Below, in pieces: positions 1,532 through 16,351 of a stretch of 21,722 bases of DNA; within the stretch, counting starts at the first letter, position 1, and the number at the start of each line of letters is the position of its first letter. The notes under the pieces are model-generated. The model did not search any database and was not told the DNA's origin. It saw only the letters and a list, made by a program, of their open reading frames with translations. The DNA comes from a virus (Duplodnaviria > Heunggongvirae > Uroviricota > Caudoviricetes), in the IMG/VR virus record IMGVR_UViG_2778261217_000005, one strand, 5' to 3'. Made by a program: the position numbers and the translations under genes.

Positions 1532-1741
1532 TTAATTTGAATACAATGCAATTCTCGAGGACTGAAGTTTCTCGCAATTAAAATTTATCAGTTTTACTTT
1601 CTGCTCTCTGGAAACACCTGCTTCTTTTTTACCTGAGAGCATTTTTTCGCATTCTGATTTCGTTAGTTTAGATTTTGAATATCTTGTCCAGTTAGTAGGA
1701 GTGCCACCTTCCTTTTCAATAGTGGCGGTAATTTTATACAT
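1532..1741 (-). CDS. ydaC: Small Rac prophage protein YdaC-like (69 aa)
   Basis: Start chosen at MYKITATIEKEGG with GGAGGTG SD 5 nt upstream; the longer ORF start would lie inside ralR. Confidence 0.6.
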   Translation of the reverse strand: MYKITATIEKEGGTPTNWTRYSKSKLTKSECEKMLSGKKEAGVSREQKVKLINFNCEKLQSSRIALYSN

Positions 1742-1928
1742 GAACACCTCCATTATTATTTCCAGTGGTTCGTTTATTCCATCTTTCGAGTGCTTCTTTT
1801 TCACTTCCACCATAACCGGTTCGGGATTCGCATCCGTTACACTTCGCTCGGTAATATCCTGAAATGGCTTTCACCGTTACTGATGGACAACCACAAAATG
1901 GACATGGTTTAACATTGTCATATCTCAT
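1734..1928 (-). CDS. ralR: Restriction-alleviation protein / type I toxin RalR (Lar), 64 aa
   Basis: MRYDNVKPCPFCGCPSVTVKAISGYYRAKCNGCES... Cys-rich 64-aa protein matching recalled Lar/RalR; its stop overlaps the ydaC start by 8 nt. Confidence 0.75.
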   Translation of the reverse strand: MRYDNVKPCPFCGCPSVTVKAISGYYRAKCNGCESRTGYGGSEKEALERWNKRTTGNNNGGVHV

Positions 1929-2794: not shown

Positions 2795-5387
2795 TTGCAT
2801 ATTCCTTAGCCCAGCGGGGCAGTGATAATGTCTTAATAGCTGGCCATTCATCGGTATTCAGGCAGTCAGACAGGGTTCTCAGATTGCGGTGATATTCCTG
2901 TTGACCTGCCAGTTTTGCTTCTTCGCCCATCATGAAAATTTCAACCGGATAACGTCCGCATTCAATAGTTGTGCTGGCAACCAGAAAAACGAAAGTTGGC
3001 TGCACTCCAAACTGTGCTTCATAACCGTCACTGTAGAATGCATCCTGAACGTGATAGCGGTAGTCGTAATAAGCGGTTTTGAATCGTTGAATATCCGCCG
3101 TAGTTTTCACGTCCATGATCCAGTGAAATTCAGGGATAATTTTGTCCGGACGGCACCGACACAAAATTCCTGTTTCAGGATCTTCCCAGTAAATTGATGA
3201 TTCAGCGTGTCCGGCGCTTTCAACAAGCCATTGCCCCAGCGGCAAAGCCATAACGCTTTGATACATGAGTTCAATTTTCCGGCCTTCTTCCGCAGTGATA
3301 ACCGTTTTTCCTGTGCTTGCGCATTCCATCAGAAACGCTTTCTCTTCTTCTTTTCCGGCGTTTGTACGGCGGTTAAATTCAGGTGCTACGATAAAGCGGT
3401 TACTGAATTCTTCCGGTTCAAGTACCCGGCAGTGGAAAGCGGTTCCTAAATCGAGCGTTTTTGTCTTTGTGGTGTCCACGGGGGCATTTTTACGCCACAA
3501 ATATAGTGCCGGAGTATCAGCAATGTCATCGAGCTGAGACTTACTGACACCGGGACCCGCGTGGTAATTCTCATTCGAAATTCCGTAATAAATACCTGGC
3601 TCTATGTCTTCTACGATTACGGGATCTGCGACTTCGCCAGTTTCATCACTGCAATCGCGATGCGGATCGCTGCCAGCATTCTCATTGTGCGGATGTTCAG
3701 CGCCTTCCATTTCCTCCGGATCATTTTCCTTAGCTTCAACCTGACTCTCTTCATCGAATGTTTCCTGGTATGTTGCGTCGCCCATCACCGCACCACAGTC
3801 AGGGCAGTTATCCCCGCCAGTCTGGCCGCAGGCATTGCAGGCTATTTCCGGTTCCTGTTGCACTACTGGCTCAGGTTGATTCATATCCGGGCTGGTTTTT
3901 TCCGTTTCTGGCTGGTTCTGGTACACACAATCGCGAGTCTGGATCCCCTTTACCCATTTCGGATCGTTCGGGTCGCTAATTCCGTCAACAAATTCACCAC
4001 GTGATGCAGCAAGCAATTTATCGGCATCGACAGGATTTTTTGATGGAATGTTTTTCCGGGCTTCATGGAGTTCTGCCCGCAGTTCCTGATATTTCGCATC
4101 AACAGAATTTACCTGTGACTGAGCATCCAGCGGCTGCGTGTCCTGATGATGTTCAGTTGCGTCCGGTTCCATTGTTTCAGCCTCTCCCTGTTCAACTGCC
4201 GTTGTTCCAGATGGTTGCGGTTTTTCTTCATCATCCTGTTTTCCTTCTTCTGTTACTCGCTGCGGCATCGGGGCAGAGGAGCGACCGCAGGCAATATCCA
4301 CGATTTCCGGATCAGGGTTGGCATGATCGGTTTCAGTCAGTACTTTGTTCAGATATTCAGTGACGTGCGCGGGGATGACCTCGATCCCAATTGGTGCTTC
4401 TTTTACGGACGCAACCACGATGGCGCGGGAATAATCCAGCCCGCCAGGCATGGTGATGAATTTGTCGCGGAAAACAGAAAAGGGCGGTTTATTTTCAGCG
4501 ATAATTTCCTCAATGCGTTTAGCGTGTGCCGGATGAAGGTTATAGATGTCCAGATCCATTGAACGGGCCAGTACGCCAGTGGCTACGTCGCGCGCCAGTG
4601 ACGTCAGATCGTGTACGAAACCTTCGCCGCGATCGGTGAGGTTTCCGCCGCCAGCATTAGCACCGGAAGCCGTGCGAGTGATGTGTGAAACACGATTACC
4701 CTTCATCCACTCTTTTGTCAGCAGTCCTCGATCGGTGTAGTCAGCGTTCAGGTATGCTTCGAAAAAAGCAGTTATCAGTCCCAGGTTTGAATTACCAGGA
4801 TTAGGGAAAACTTTGTCAGTGTCACGAACCAGTTTGTGGAGTTCGCGAATTTCCAGCGGGTCGAGCAGGCTGGTTTTGTGGGAAACAGCCAGGGCAGTAA
4901 CAGCCGGTAGTTCTTCAGCCCGAGCAATGTGTAATGCCTGGAGTCCGTCGCGTGAAACGTGCGTTACCGGTTTTTCGCTGCCGTGTTGAGCAAGCCAACG
5001 AATGGGCAGTTCCTGGCCAGAAATTGGGAGTAGCATATTCTCCTCAATCTCAGTCATGTCTTCGCCGTTGACGTTGGTATTGCCTTGATAGTGAGCGTTG
5101 TCTGGTGCTGCTCCCGGTTTTAGTTCCCATGTCATGGAGTCTTTGCTGAGTTGATAGCGTTCACTCCAGGTAAAATCGATCTCACCTTCAGCGGGCAGGT
5201 CATTAACGACAGGAAAATTCGTGGCAACAGCTTTAAAATAGCTGCTCAGTTTTTTACCTGACTTAACGATCAGGTAGTCCAGAGTGGCACAGGTCGATTC
5301 AAAATCGTCGCTTGCCCACAGGACGACGTCAGGTTCACCGGATGATTTTTTCGCTTTCCGTAACAGGAAGAGTGGTTTTGTGCTCAT
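2787..5387 (-). CDS. recE: RecE exonuclease VIII (866 aa)
   Basis: 866-aa ORF with acidic low-complexity middle region and C-terminal nuclease region; classic recE-recT pair. Confidence 0.9.
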
Positions 5388-10825: not shown

Positions 10826-11080
10826 ATGGCAAAAGTTTTTACACAGGAAGAGCGTGAAAAAATTAAGGAGCAGGTTGTTGAGCTGGTACGCCAGAGTGGG
10901 CGCGAGACGTTAAGGCAACTGGAGGCCAAGACAGGTGCGACAAGATATCTGATGAGCATTCTTGCCAGAGAGTTGGTTGCCAGTGGCGATGTATACAACT
11001 CTGGCTATGGGTTATTTCCCTCTGAACAGGCTCGTAAGGACTGGAAAAACGCCCGCAAAAAATATCCAGGGCAAAGGTGA
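10826..11080 (+). CDS. Hypothetical small protein (84 aa)
   Basis: Start MAKVFTQEEREKIKEQ with GGAGG SD; function unknown. Confidence 0.45.
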   Translation: MAKVFTQEEREKIKEQVVELVRQSGRETLRQLEAKTGATRYLMSILARELVASGDVYNSGYGLFPSEQARKDWKNARKKYPGQR

Positions 11081-11247
11081 AAAAAACGGTTGTGGTTGCT
11101 CCTGACCTTATCTGGTCATTACCAGACAGAGAAATACGCCGCTATGACGGGCGTCTGAATATAATCTGTAGCGAGTGCCGTAAGAGCGAAGTTATGAAGC
11201 GTGTACTGATGTTTTATCGAGGAAGTATCCAGGAATTTATTCGGTAA
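11077..11247 (+). CDS. Candidate small ORF (56 aa, GTG start) coupled to upstream stop (GTGA)
   Basis: Hand-translated VKKTVVVAPDLIWSLPDREIRRYDGRLNIICSECRKSEVMKRVLMFYRGSIQEFIR; one CxxC; weak SD. Confidence 0.25.
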   Translation: MKKTVVVAPDLIWSLPDREIRRYDGRLNIICSECRKSEVMKRVLMFYRGSIQEFIR

Positions 11248-11383
11248 GCAAAATCAAAATGTAATCGCTCAAGTTTAAGTTGGTGTATCTACGGCGCAGA
11301 GCCATCGCCTCATCTGGCACTGCGCTAAAATCAAATTTAGTTCCACTCTTTATTTCGTATCTGCTAAAACGCTACATAAGATT

Positions 11384-11656
11384 TTACTTTTTTAAAGAAT
11401 AAGGGAATATGTGCACCATATTGGAGGCTAGTGGATATATTCCTATGCTACGAGTTGTCTTTTTTAGTTGATCTATGCTTGCTTCTTTATCGGGAGCCCG
11501 GCCTCCCCACACTGTAACTCCCTCAGGTATATCGATTGGGCGACTTTTGTTTTCATCTGTGATTTCAATAGTTTCTCCATTGTTAAGCGTAATAATCAAC
11601 GATGACACGTCCAGGTGTTGTGTATTCCCATTTTTATTTTTAATGTCTATTTTCAT
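11384..11656 (-). CDS. Hypothetical protein (90 aa) in AT-rich island
   Basis: ORF with balanced charged composition; no SD; no recognised motif. Confidence 0.3.
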   Translation of the reverse strand: MKIDIKNKNGNTQHLDVSSLIITLNNGETIEITDENKSRPIDIPEGVTVWGGRAPDKEASIDQLKKTTRSIGIYPLASNMVHIFPYSLKK

Positions 11657-11813
11657 GGCTATTTCATTATATGTTATCTGTGCTGGAGTAATAAGTTTAC
11701 GGTATTAAGAAGCATTTTGACGAAACAATCAACTGACTTATCAGCTAAGGTGGCATTGTAATGCGATCTGATTGGTATCATCAGGACGCTGTTCAAAAAA
11801 GGGGTATTAGTTG

Positions 11814-11842
11814 ATCTTGAAATCTTGCTCAAAATATGTAGC
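11814..11842. repeat. Direct-repeat copy A (ATCTTGAAAT ... GCTCAAAATA ... TGTAGC) upstream of queH-like gene
   Basis: Shares 10-mer, 9-mer and 6-mer blocks with copy B at 12710-12756. Confidence 0.35.
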
Positions 11843-11926
11843 CTCTTGTTTAACTGCCAACTTTTTGGGGCAGTACACTATGATGCTACACAACTTGCAA
11901 GTTTCATTACCCCGACGTAAACATTT

Positions 11927-12595
11927 ATGACAGTTGCTGATTTCAAACGTCCTAAGTTGGAGCTCCCAAACGGGGCAAACAAACTACTATTACACTCTTG
12001 TTGTGCACCATGTTCCGGTGAAGTGATGGAGGCTCTTCAGGCCTCAGGAATCGACTACACCATCTTCTTCTATAATCCGAACATTCATCCTCAGAAAGAG
12101 TATTTGATTCGTAAGAATGAGAATATTCGATTTGCTGAACAACATGGTGTCCCGTTTATCGATGCTGATTACGACACTGACAACTGGTTTGAGCGAGCCA
12201 AAGGAATGGAATGGGAGCCAGAACGTGGGAGGCGTTGTACTATGTGTTTTGACATGCGTTTTGAACGGACGGCGCTGTACGCCGCTGAAAATGGTTTCAG
12301 TGTGATCAGCAGTTCACTGGGCATTTCACGCTGGAAAAATATGCAGCAGGTTAACGACAGCGGACGGCGAGCTGTCGCACATTATCCGGGCATGGTGTAC
12401 TGGGATTATAACTGGCGCAAGCAGGGAGGCTCGTCCCGCATGATTGAAATCAGCAAACGCGAACAATTCTATCAGCAGGAATATTGTGGTTGCGTGTATT
12501 CACTTCGCGATACCAATTTACACCGCAAATCCCAGGGACGCCCTCTTATCAAAATTGGTCAACTCCACTACGGTAAAGAAGAAGGGCAGGAATGA
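11927..12595 (+). CDS. queH: QueH-like epoxyqueuosine reductase (DUF208 family), 222 aa
   Basis: Motifs [19 protein letters not shown] and QEYCGCVYS match my recollection of the DUF208/QueH Cys pattern. Confidence 0.65.
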
Positions 12596-12709
12596 TTTTT
12601 ACATTACGTCAACAGAGTGTCACAACGTTTCTATATATGGTATGCCGACCGTAATTTTCGAATCATCATGCCTAATAGGTAGGTCACCTATGCCAGCAAT
12701 GACCTGCTC

Positions 12710-12756
12710 ATCTTGAAATTAGCAGAAATCTTGTAGCTATGATGTAGCTCAAAATA
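12710..12756. repeat. Direct-repeat copy B downstream of queH-like gene
   Basis: ATCTTGAAAT, GAAATCTTG, TGTAGC (x2), GCTCAAAATA blocks shared with copy A. Confidence 0.35.
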
Positions 12757-12904
12757 GTTTTTCATTCTTTTACCTGATGTCTGTTCCTGGCTGAAAACAG
12801 ACTGTATTATTTGATTACGCACCACTGACACTTGTGTATTGAAGTAGTGAGTACAAAGCCACATATTTATCAGTGTATGTATACGTCAAAAACAGGAGAT
12901 TGTT

Positions 12905-12994
12905 GTGCTGGTTCTGAAGTGTGCGTTAGCAATAGTGGCTGTGGTGGCAATTTATTGCCTTGTTGTTGTTCTTATGGAGCGACTTTCTGATTGA
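12905..12994 (+). CDS. Candidate 29-aa hydrophobic single-helix peptide (toxin-like or small membrane protein)
   Basis: AGGAG SD 6 nt upstream of GTG; hand-translated VLVLKCALAIVAVVAIYCLVVVLMERLSD; hydrophobic core with charged C-terminus. Confidence 0.3.
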   Translation: MLVLKCALAIVAVVAIYCLVVVLMERLSD

Positions 12995-13206
12995 TTACAT
13001 ACTGGCTAAAAAAAGCGTTTGCCTGGCTTATCTTTGTCCGGCAAGGTGCGCTCATTAATCTGAAGTAAATTTATTTCTTAAGTATTCAGATTACTTCTTA
13101 TGGTCGAAGTCTCCTGGCAATGTAGAACCAAAATATTTACAAAAACGAGACCCGTCGAGGATAGCTCTGCCGGGTCTGACTGTTAAAGTATTTTTAATAT
13201 GATCAT

Positions 13207-13545
13207 CTATTTTTTGGTGCTATAGACTTTTTCGCCTGAGAAGTCTGGAGCGACCCAAAAGTTAATATTAAACTGAGCATCATCGCTTAGTTCAACACGG
13301 TGCCAGTATTGTGGTGGGCTTGTTGCAAAAGAGCCAGCATTAATAACTACTTTTATCTCTGGTTCAGTAGTATTCTCATCAGCAAAACCATAATATGTTA
13401 CAGTGCCTTCCATTACGCACAACTGCCCAAAAACACCTGCTGCTGTATTATGATGTGTTAATAATGCTGAAGGTACGTTCTCTTTTGTGAAGAACGGAGT
13501 TGAGCGTTTGATTACCCAATCTTTAGGAATTCTCTTGTGTGTCAT
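13207..13545 (-). CDS. Small cupin-like protein (112 aa), possibly DUF1971/TehB-N-like
   Basis: ATG at 13545 preceded by AGGAGGTGG SD; family assignment is a weak recollection. Confidence 0.5.
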   Translation of the reverse strand: MTHKRIPKDWVIKRSTPFFTKENVPSALLTHHNTAAGVFGQLCVMEGTVTYYGFADENTTEPEIKVVINAGSFATSPPQYWHRVELSDDAQFNINFWVAPDFSGEKVYSTKK

Positions 13546-14416
13546 AACCACCTCCTATAAAACATGCATTATAAATGCACCTTTTGAGGAGTTATGTCAA
13601 GCTGTTATGAAACACATAATTGATATGTTGATTAGAGGAGAAGATAGAATAAATATGGTTGTTTTTCGTATAACTACTTGTTTTTCTTTTGGTTTATGCA
13701 TTCTGTGTGTTAGGAATAAGTTATTAAAGTTTAATCAAGAAATCTCGATGTATTCCACATAGATTACTGTTACTGAACCTTATTGTGTGCATTAGTTGTG
13801 TTCTGAAATTTCAGCTTAATTATTTATGATATATTTTTTAACGATAAATGTTTTCCCAGGTAAAAGACAGTTGGGAATAAGATAAGTAATATATCATTAA
13901 TCTTGATTATTTCCAGGGTGCCTTTACTGTGCATATAAATAAATCATATATGCATTAAATAATGTAAAGGCATCCTTTTAGATATATCTTATCAAATATT
14001 AATGACTTGAGTGGGAAACATGACTCCAGCAACTTATCATGTGGCTACTTTATAAAAATAATGCCCATATAAAACAACAAGCGAAAAGGATTACGGATAA
14101 AAAAGGAGCGAGATGTGCAAACTTGTTATTTTCCATGTTTAACCACCTTAAATAATTGATGATGACGGGATGATTGCATCTGTAATGCTTTTATTGAAAT
14201 GTTATGATAAAAAAGAACTTTTTCATAACATTAAAATGTAATTTAGCTAATCGTTTTTAATAATAAGTGTCGTATTTCTATCCTTGTACTAGCTATTTGA
14301 TATGTAGTGTTTGTTCATGCTATGTGGGGCTTTACACCATAGCCAGTTTATTTATACTTTATTCGTCAGCCTGAACAACTGGCATCTGCTGCACTGCGCC
14401 ATAGAGAGATTGAGAA

Positions 14417-15016
14417 ATGGCGCATATACAACTGGTCAAACAAACTTCTTCTGGTTTACTTCTCCCGGCGACGCCGGAGAGTTGTGATTTTCTGCATCAA
14501 ATTAAAATAGGCGAGTGGATACACGCTGATTTTAAGCGTGTGCGTAACTACGCATTCCACAAGCGTTTTTTCAAACTCCTGCAACTGGGATTCGATTACT
14601 GGACTCCGGTTGGTGGGGCGATCACGCCTCGCGAACGAGAACTGCTGTCTGGTTTCGTTGATTACCTGTGCGAATCAGTTGGTCGGGAACACACGCCAGC
14701 CCTGAGTGATGCCGCAGAGCAATATCTGAATACAGTGGCGACACGCAGAACCCGGGATACGGCATTGCTAAAGTCGTTTGAGGCTTTTCGCGAGTGGGTA
14801 ACCATTCAGGCTGGATTTTACACCGAACATTTTTATCCGGACGGTAGCCATGGGCGTCGGGCGAAATCCATCGCTTTTGCGAATATGGACGAAACCGAGT
14901 TTCAGCAGGTTTATAAATCTGTTCTGAATGTGCTGTGGAACTGGATTCTGTTCCGTAAATTTTCCTCTCTGGAACAAGTCGAAAATGTGGCCGCGCAGCT
15001 GCTGGAGTTTGCGTAA
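14417..15016 (+). CDS. DUF1367-family phage protein (YbcN-like), 199 aa
   Basis: Nin-region position; resembles recalled DLP12 YbcN family. Confidence 0.65.
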   Translation: MAHIQLVKQTSSGLLLPATPESCDFLHQIKIGEWIHADFKRVRNYAFHKRFFKLLQLGFDYWTPVGGAITPRERELLSGFVDYLCESVGREHTPALSDAAEQYLNTVATRRTRDTALLKSFEAFREWVTIQAGFYTEHFYPDGSHGRRAKSIAFANMDETEFQQVYKSVLNVLWNWILFRKFSSLEQVENVAAQLLEFA

Positions 15017-16197: not shown

Positions 16198-16273
<76 letters not shown>

Positions 16274-16276
16274 TAT

Positions 16277-16351
<75 letters not shown>

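Follow-up and report, generated by a model that had tools for sequence, protein, structure and literature searches.

A conserved 29-codon open reading frame at the edge of a prophage cargo site in Escherichia and Shigella probably encodes a single-helix membrane peptide

Our analyses of a Rac-type lambdoid prophage of Escherichia coli indicate that a small open reading frame (sORF) of 29 codons is very probably a genuine gene, the product of which would be a membrane-targeted peptide with one helix. The prophage is represented by a stretch of 21,722 nucleotides (IMG/VR virus record IMGVR_UViG_2778261217_000005), the whole of which is referred to below as the window. The assignment of the sORF as a gene draws on the list of open reading frames of the window, on the intact copies of the sORF in related loci and on the statistics of the substitutions that distinguish these copies. 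The best overall explanation of these observations, which we favour with fair confidence, is that the sORF would represent an independent small inner-membrane protein gene (i.e., a moron) located beside a cargo hot spot. The more specific proposal that its product may act as a modulator, and not as a toxin, is put forward only tentatively. The evidence that bears on these proposals, and on the alternatives to them, is described below.

The sORF (12905..12994, plus strand) begins with a GTG codon at 12905–12907, ends with a TGA codon at 12992–12994 and specifies the product MLVLKCALAIVAVVAIYCLVVVLMERLSD. It is preceded by the Shine-Dalgarno (SD) sequence AGGAG (12894..12898, plus strand), the core of which is kept in most of the copies compared, and which is separated from the GTG at 12905 by a spacer of 6 nt (ATTGTT). 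These particulars agree with those given in an earlier note that was made from the sequence of the window alone. The single hydrophobic helix with a charged C-terminus that was predicted there is likewise borne out: the peptide has a GRAVY of 2.06, its best 19-residue Kyte-Doolittle (KD) mean of 3.07 falls on residues 6–24, which are uncharged, and its charged residues flank the helix, with K5 on the N-side and E25, R26 and D29 on the C-side. Among the 247 ORFs of 20–50 aa that are present on both strands of the window, this ORF alone reaches a KD mean of at least 2.5 over 19 residues, and it has an SD sequence too. The placement of the sORF in an AT-rich island by the earlier note holds in part, as the GC content near the ORF is 0.40 vs. 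~0.45 across the window, but the truly AT-rich stretch of the window is found at 13500–14400 (GC 0.29–0.36). A TTG-initiated ORF of 52 aa that overlaps the sORF (12832–12990), together with its 96-aa counterpart in the related locus L129, was also considered; both were rejected as genes because the shifted frames have pN/pS values of 0.76–0.88, indels of one base occur in the upstream block, and stop codons interrupt the frame elsewhere among the loci.

Relatives of the sORF were sought by exact cluster look-up, tblastn, degenerate DNA patterns and a 40-aa query extended in frame. IMG/VR was scanned with an amino-acid-degenerate pattern (codons 2–10) and, separately, with a pattern for the 5' leader only; at least 120 loci were obtained by each, and the leader-anchored sample imposes no constraint on the ORF itself. 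In this leader-anchored sample the ORF is open in all copies (132/132), mostly at a length of 29 aa, with three stop-loss variants of 31 or 35 aa. Among the complete copies in the peptide-anchored sample, 147 of the 148 are intact and one carries a frameshift (L095), whereas single-base indels are present in the upstream non-coding block. The intactness of the ORF is by itself weak evidence, because the divergence within the family is low overall. The substitutions themselves were examined in several ways. When only the unconstrained codons (11–29) of unique alleles are considered, the variable columns are distributed over the three codon positions as 6/7/13, and the pooled pN/pS is 0.43 in the frame of the sORF, in comparison to 0.76 and 0.88 for the two frames shifted from it. 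The divergence of homologs at synonymous sites, which the earlier note had named as a possible refutation, speaks in favour of coding: when each distinct single-base variant is counted once, 25 are synonymous, 27 are nonsynonymous and none creates a stop codon, and the synonymous share (25/52) exceeds the expected fraction of 0.26–0.30 (binomial p 6e-4 to 4e-3). Within the helix (codons 6–24), none of the 20 replacements is to D, E, K, R, N, Q, H or P, where 28% would be expected (P = 0.0012), and the mean change in hydropathy of the helix replacements is -0.30 vs. an expected -2.33 (P ~0.0009). The signals for initiation are also retained: the start codon is GTG in 150/150 of the peptide-anchored copies among the matches listed and ATG in the copy on pINV, and an SD core is present within -16..-4 in 140 of the 150 copies (among the matches listed) that were chosen solely by the peptide pattern. 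The pN/pS of 0.43 indicates moderate constraint only, and from these comparisons we conclude that the sORF has probably been subject to peptide-level purifying selection of moderate strength, which fits a helix whose hydrophobic character matters. Two rare variants at the 3' end were also recorded, viz. a ~10-nt deletion that takes out the stop codon in L138 and L139, where the peptide is more diverged and 35 aa long, and a TGA->TGC change in L085, which is a stop-loss that adds 2 aa.

The region upstream of the sORF contains a candidate sigma-70 promoter, whose inference is based upon its conserved spacing. It consists of a -35-like TTGAAG (12839..12844, plus strand) and a -10-like CATATT (12862..12867, plus strand), with a predicted transcription start site (TSS) at ~12874 and a predicted leader of ~30 nt. 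The arrangement TTGAAT/TTGAAG-17 nt-CATATT is fixed at 37 nt from the start codon in 132 of 150 copies among the matches listed, and CATATT is found in 149 of 150 (again among the matches listed) and is invariant in the alignment of the leader, while the candidate -35 is replaced in some lineages. A simple promoter scan missed this candidate because its match to the consensus is only 8/12. The leader (12868–12912) folds at -4.3 kcal/mol (z +1.0) and is essentially unstructured; in the predicted leader the SD would therefore not be occluded. For the related copy of the sORF on the plasmid pWR100 of S. flexneri M90T, a dRNA-seq map is available (PMC7132871, Table S3), in which the TSSs of icsP are placed at 90709 and 90726, and the nearest same-strand TSS, which is assigned to a 'novel transcript', lies at 91318(-), 321 nt upstream of the pINV sORF and in the same orientation. 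The same map has no TSS at the equivalent of the predicted proximal promoter (PMC7132871).

The sORF forms part of a conserved module of ~170 nt (12835..13006, plus strand), which is the stretch that the window has in common with the copies found in other contexts, viz. the hok-linked prophage copies and Shigella pINV. In alignments, the homology between contexts extends from TGTATTGAAG to ~12 nt past the stop codon (..TGGC), and the megablast matches to variants that are 88–90% identical start at query positions 236/258, corresponding to 12835/12857 of the window, upstream of which the genes are wholly different. The genes in this upstream position include QueH in the window and, in its relatives, TPR and HNH genes; adenosine deaminase, NTP pyrophosphatase and SIR2; or MFS, GGCT and LysR. 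Among the matches listed, the closest upstream ORF (window counterpart 11927–12835; loci L002–L127) belongs to 46 unrelated clusters in 134 loci, and the module therefore stays constant on the right side of a hot spot for cargo genes. The module is always positioned at the right edge of this highly variable cargo site, in Rac/Qin-type lambdoid prophages, and many of the cargo genes upstream of it look like defence systems. On its other side, the module occurs in at least three neighbourhoods (viz. upstream of hokD/sok, convergent with a DUF1971 gene, and upstream of icsP on pINV), with 128 copies in the hokD/sok context and 21 in the DUF1971 arrangement among the matches listed.

The module is widely distributed within a narrow group of organisms. 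It is present in 1560 of 5426 complete E. coli genomes (~29%), where it occupies 1757 places, with up to 3 per genome. The earlier note had also proposed a tblastn search for conservation of the peptide, and this search retrieved the sORF from 143 plasmids, 124 of them from Shigella. The copy on pWR100 (pINV) has an ATG start at the same position (MLVLKGTLAIAAVMTIYCLIVVLMERFSD) and an intact peptide ORF, and it is located beside a decayed hok promoter/leader, ~290 nt upstream of icsP, within the long regulatory region of that gene (L128 3900–4200; NZ_CP037924.1 90800–91320). When one genome per species was examined for 185,579 species, the only carriers were E. albertii, E. ruysiae, the S. flexneri chromosome and three MAG contigs, in which the ORF and its flanks match those of E. 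coli-type copies. The peptide family is, as judged from the sequences searched, restricted to Escherichia/Shigella. The 40-aa extended protein query led to 14 clusters, of which all those with a named source are from E. coli and are described as 'membrane protein' or 'hypothetical', and exact look-up in nr found versions of 29 to 42 aa. In the GenBank records of phages, tblastn gave no match and megablast matched the DUF1971 edge only. It had been supposed in the earlier note that the ORF lies below the cutoffs of ORF callers; this is correct for the 60 RefSeq matches listed (of 1560 genomes), none of which has a feature annotated beneath the module, but the ORF is called by Prodigal/Prokka and by some GenBank submitters as 'hypothetical' or 'putative membrane protein'. 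The pWR100 copy, for example, is called by Prokka as CP037924_00134, complement(90908..90997) (PMC7132871).

The arrangement of the window is best described by reference to a RefSeq locus that is 99.5% identical to it. The left part of this locus contains ydaF, HTH repressors, ydaT/U/V, DUF1627, DUF977 and QueH, followed by an unannotated gap, and after the gap are found DUF1971 (on the opposite strand), DUF1367/DUF1364/DUF1133, tRNA-Thr and tRNA-Gly, essD/rrrD/rzpD and trkG. The label of the DUF1971 gene in the window is taken from this record. The sORF is located in the gap, between QueH (11927–12595, plus strand) and the convergent DUF1971 gene (13207–13551, minus strand), in the nin/Q-proximal early-right region that lies between the replication genes and the DUF1367/DUF1364/DUF1133 block. 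A fold at 12779–12802 was considered as a terminator of QueH, but it is weak (-6.8 kcal/mol, z -0.4) and no claim is made for it; no plus-strand terminator was found after the sORF in the window. The minus strand has an intrinsic terminator of the DUF1971 gene at 13140..13177 (hairpin of -15 kcal/mol followed by a U-run, z -2.45) and, closer to the sORF, a second hairpin with a run of seven U residues (13008..13044, minus strand). This second element consists of a hairpin at 13019–13044 followed by U7 at 13008–13014 (fold of 12996–13050 on the minus strand: -9.8 kcal/mol, UUUUUUU); it is 14 nt from the stop codon of the sORF, its energy is ordinary in comparison to shuffled sequences, and it is confined to the copies in the DUF1971 context. 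As modelled, it would halt leftward transcripts before they become antisense to the sORF. The ~100 nt between the two minus-strand hairpins (13008–13177) are invariant in six other aligned loci of the DUF1971 context, while the window differs from them at a few positions, and the region could represent a small RNA that is either 3'-UTR-derived or independent.

Most copies of the sORF (~85% among the matches listed) lie ahead of hokD/sok. In this context the stop codon of the sORF is 43 nt upstream of the Rfam match to the sok/hok leader (113 bits in locus L129), which is a separate unit, and the hok promoter (TTGGCG-17-TAGAAT) begins ~10 nt past the stop codon with no terminator between. An obligate link between the sORF and hok was considered and rejected, as the 5426 E. 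coli genomes contain hokD-type loci at 10,917 places (in 4724 genomes, with up to 10 in each), far exceeding the 1757 places of the sORF, and the association is not obligatory in either direction. The hokD of K-12 has neither the leader nor the sORF, and the K-12-type hokD copies match only the 3' half, which indicates that their leader is truncated. The sORF is also found without hok, viz. in the window and in ~350 other genomes, and on pINV it has outlived the adjoining hok.

Searches of protein families returned no assignment for the peptide: no family in Pfam matches it at E <= 10; NCBIfam yielded only sub-threshold matches to the ATP synthase c TM region (13–15 bits); nothing significant was obtained from PADLOC or PHROGs; PDB contains no match; and the models of TisB, ShoB, Ibs, Ldr and other curated type I toxins in Pfam/NCBIfam do not match. 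A literature search found no paper with the peptide string, and the peptide is absent from the Sakai Ribo-seq sORF supplements. The relevant passages of a Hok survey preprint make no mention of an upstream ORF, while a UPEC Ribo-seq preprint mentions MgtS, AcrZ, PmrR and YohP, and its SMP3 and SMP7 differ in length from the sORF peptide.

By its properties the peptide would fall among the small single-pass membrane proteins, a class that is already known, but it is a member of no described family. Members of this class in the inner membrane of E. coli, familiar from the Hemm/Storz literature, include MgtS, AcrZ, KdpF, CydX and YohP. Like them, the sORF product has fewer than 50 residues and one helix, is encoded by an SD-led ORF that annotation has missed, is conserved at the level of the peptide and has charged residues flanking the helix; unlike them, it is encoded on mobile elements of Escherichia/Shigella only and not in the core genome, and, as judged from Pfam and NCBIfam, it has no sequence relationship to any of these five proteins. 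The suggestion of the earlier note that the product could alternatively be a small membrane protein of phage fits these properties. With Hok/Gef (PF01848; RF01794) the product shares its nature as a small membrane peptide borne by prophages and plasmids, and its gene usually adjoins hokD/sok; however, it has 29 residues vs. ~50, lacks the periplasmic Cys-containing domain and any HMM match, and in the window neither a mok-like frame that overlaps its gene nor a sok-like RNA is present. The toxins of the systems TisB/IstR-1, ShoB/OhsC, Ibs/Sib, Ldr/Rdl, ZorO/OrzO and DinQ/AgrB resemble it in peptide length and hydrophobic helix. These systems are characterized by long structured 5' UTRs and by antisense or divergent sRNAs with a complementarity of 18–21 nt or more, whereas the predicted leader of the sORF is ~30 nt and unstructured and no such sRNA was found. 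Lambdoid prophage morons are accessory genes that have been inserted among the genes of a phage and are expressed independently of them, and the sORF is comparable to them in its variable presence among related prophages, its own promoter-like signals and its location adjoining a cargo site; it differs in that its promoter is a candidate only and that, in the window, it has no plus-strand terminator downstream.

The label given to the peptide in the earlier note, viz. a type I toxin of the Hok/TisB/ShoB class, is not upheld by our analyses, and we regard this reading as unlikely. It would hold that the peptide kills or arrests the cell by damaging the membrane, and that its translation is normally kept off by an antisense sRNA encoded in cis or in trans, by a primary transcript that is inactive until its 5' end is processed, or by both. 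The size, hydrophobic helix and charged tail of the peptide fit this class, the sORF is prophage- and plasmid-borne, and ~85% of the copies (among the matches listed) are followed, 43 nt downstream, by a bona fide hok/sok; however, no toxin family in Pfam, NCBIfam, PHROGs or PADLOC matches the peptide, and the leader predicted for its gene, which is short and unstructured, contains a strong SD. A scan of 11000–15000 with Rfam (E <= 5) detected no RNA match and no sok-like RNA, and the window showed no minus-strand promoter-like sites over the ORF or shortly beyond it. Such a site, with a consensus match of 9/12, does occur right after the stop codon in the hok context, which would suit a toxin with an antisense RNA, but it is without a counterpart in the window and on pINV, its number is within chance expectation, and it does not amount to a conserved antisense promoter. 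The minus-strand hairpin and U7 of the window, located right at the 3' end of the ORF, also argue against an antisense transcript. Furthermore, RNA data, in which the earlier note had proposed to look for an antisense sRNA, are available for the pWR100 homolog, and there dRNA-seq has no opposite-strand TSS from 90219 to 91397 (PMC7132871). A trans-antisense RNA originating from the conserved minus-strand region 13000–13150 was considered and rejected, as the short direct repeats involved are not colinear for a duplex, and the RNAduplex energy between the sORF mRNA and the RNA of 13150–13000(-) is no better than that of shuffles (p = 0.38). In the majority lineages, longer transcripts (and these only) contain a possible 9-bp anti-SD stem, in which GACAGCCUC is paired with the SD/spacer GAGGUUGUC (L129 3948–3956 with 3989–3997); 86% of cells are paired vs. 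37–63% in slid controls, and there is one compensatory CG->UA pair. Its energy, however, is ordinary (z -0.25) and the allele of the window forms just 5/9 pairs, so that occlusion of the SD by this stem in longer transcripts is something that could occur and is treated as a lead only. The defining feature of an antitoxin RNA was thus sought at the locus and not found, and its presence is not supported; a distant sRNA acting in trans may nevertheless exist.

The other explanations concern whether the ORF is translated at all and, if so, whether its product matters. It is quite unlikely, in our estimation, that the ORF is untranslated and has arisen incidentally within conserved non-coding DNA, for example a promoter/leader or a 'linker' for recombination that flanks the cargo hot spot. 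The flanks, viz. the leader and, in the majority lineages, also ~150–230 nt upstream, show a conservation at least equal to that of the ORF, the module is located exactly at the junctions of the mosaic, and no proximal TSS was called in pWR100 (PMC7132871). On the other hand, the excess of synonymous changes and the third-position bias are specific to the frame of the sORF, the replacements are limited to hydrophobic residues, one frameshift in 148 copies stands against the single-base indels of the upstream block, the start codon is kept as GTG or ATG and the SD is also kept, and the sORF is the sole small ORF of TM grade among the 247 of the window. The location of the sORF directly upstream of the hok promoter, with no terminator between, would also suit a leader ORF, for which the act of translation, and not the product, would tune how the downstream unit (hok/sok in most copies) is transcribed or translated. 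This appears highly improbable, as it is the kind of amino acid in the peptide that is under selection, the sORF is retained where hok is absent (in the window, with no sok by Rfam) or decayed (pINV), and most hokD loci are without the sORF. Finally, the sequences would also accommodate a new membrane toxin without family or a Hok-associated factor, or else a small membrane 'gatekeeper' tied to the defence/cargo hot spot, although we consider this group of readings something of a long shot. It could include, for example, a second membrane-active peptide beside hokD/sok whose long transcripts are silenced by the SD-sequestering stem or, in the case of a gatekeeper, a function in superinfection exclusion or abortive infection. 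These readings draw on the ~85% of the copies (among the matches listed) that abut hok/sok and on the 9-bp anti-SD stem of the majority lineages, with its one compensatory change.

Under the preferred explanation, in which the sORF is a small moron, its transcription would proceed from its own weak sigma-70-type promoter (TTGAAG-17-CATATT) and/or by read-through from the early-right operon, and its translation would start at the accessible SD/GTG. The product is predicted to enter the inner membrane as a single helix (residues ~2–24), with a topology that is probably N-in/C-out, placing K5 inside and the acidic ERLSD tail outside in agreement with the positive-inside rule. In the membrane it may act as an oligomer, or else it may modulate or associate with a larger membrane protein. 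It seems more likely to be a small membrane protein without lethal effect than a tightly repressed toxin, as the accessible start and the lack of a repressing RNA among those sought argue against a caged lethal toxin and for a product that the cell tolerates when expression is at its native level.

If the sORF is translated, it would add a small membrane protein to ~29% of the complete E. coli genomes and to 124 Shigella plasmids, pWR100 among them, which RefSeq annotation omits in every match examined (60 listed). The sORF marks the conserved right edge of the cargo site, and it therefore provides a handy anchor for mining the hot spot. Its place by hokD/sok and icsP invites the question of whether it influences Hok activity, prophage fitness or the biology of the Shigella virulence plasmid. 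Should the product be just an ordinary small membrane peptide, the annotation would still be usefully corrected.

Some additional features of the window were observed in the course of this work. The AT-rich stretch referred to above includes ~850 nt between DUF1971 and DUF1367 (13550–14416; GC 0.29–0.36), in which no gene is annotated in the relatives examined and no Rfam match was found; it is possibly a spacer silenced by H-NS-type proteins or a region with unannotated features. The RalR/RalA type I pair of the Rac prophage is located at 1532–1813 (minus strand) and 1557–1735 (plus strand), with a score of 222.9 bits for RalA in Rfam, and no other type I system was recognised in the window. 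Lastly, tandem genes for tRNA-Thr(tgt) and tRNA-Gly(tcc) are found at 16198–16351 (plus strand), after the DUF1133 (Q-like) gene and before the lysis cassette.
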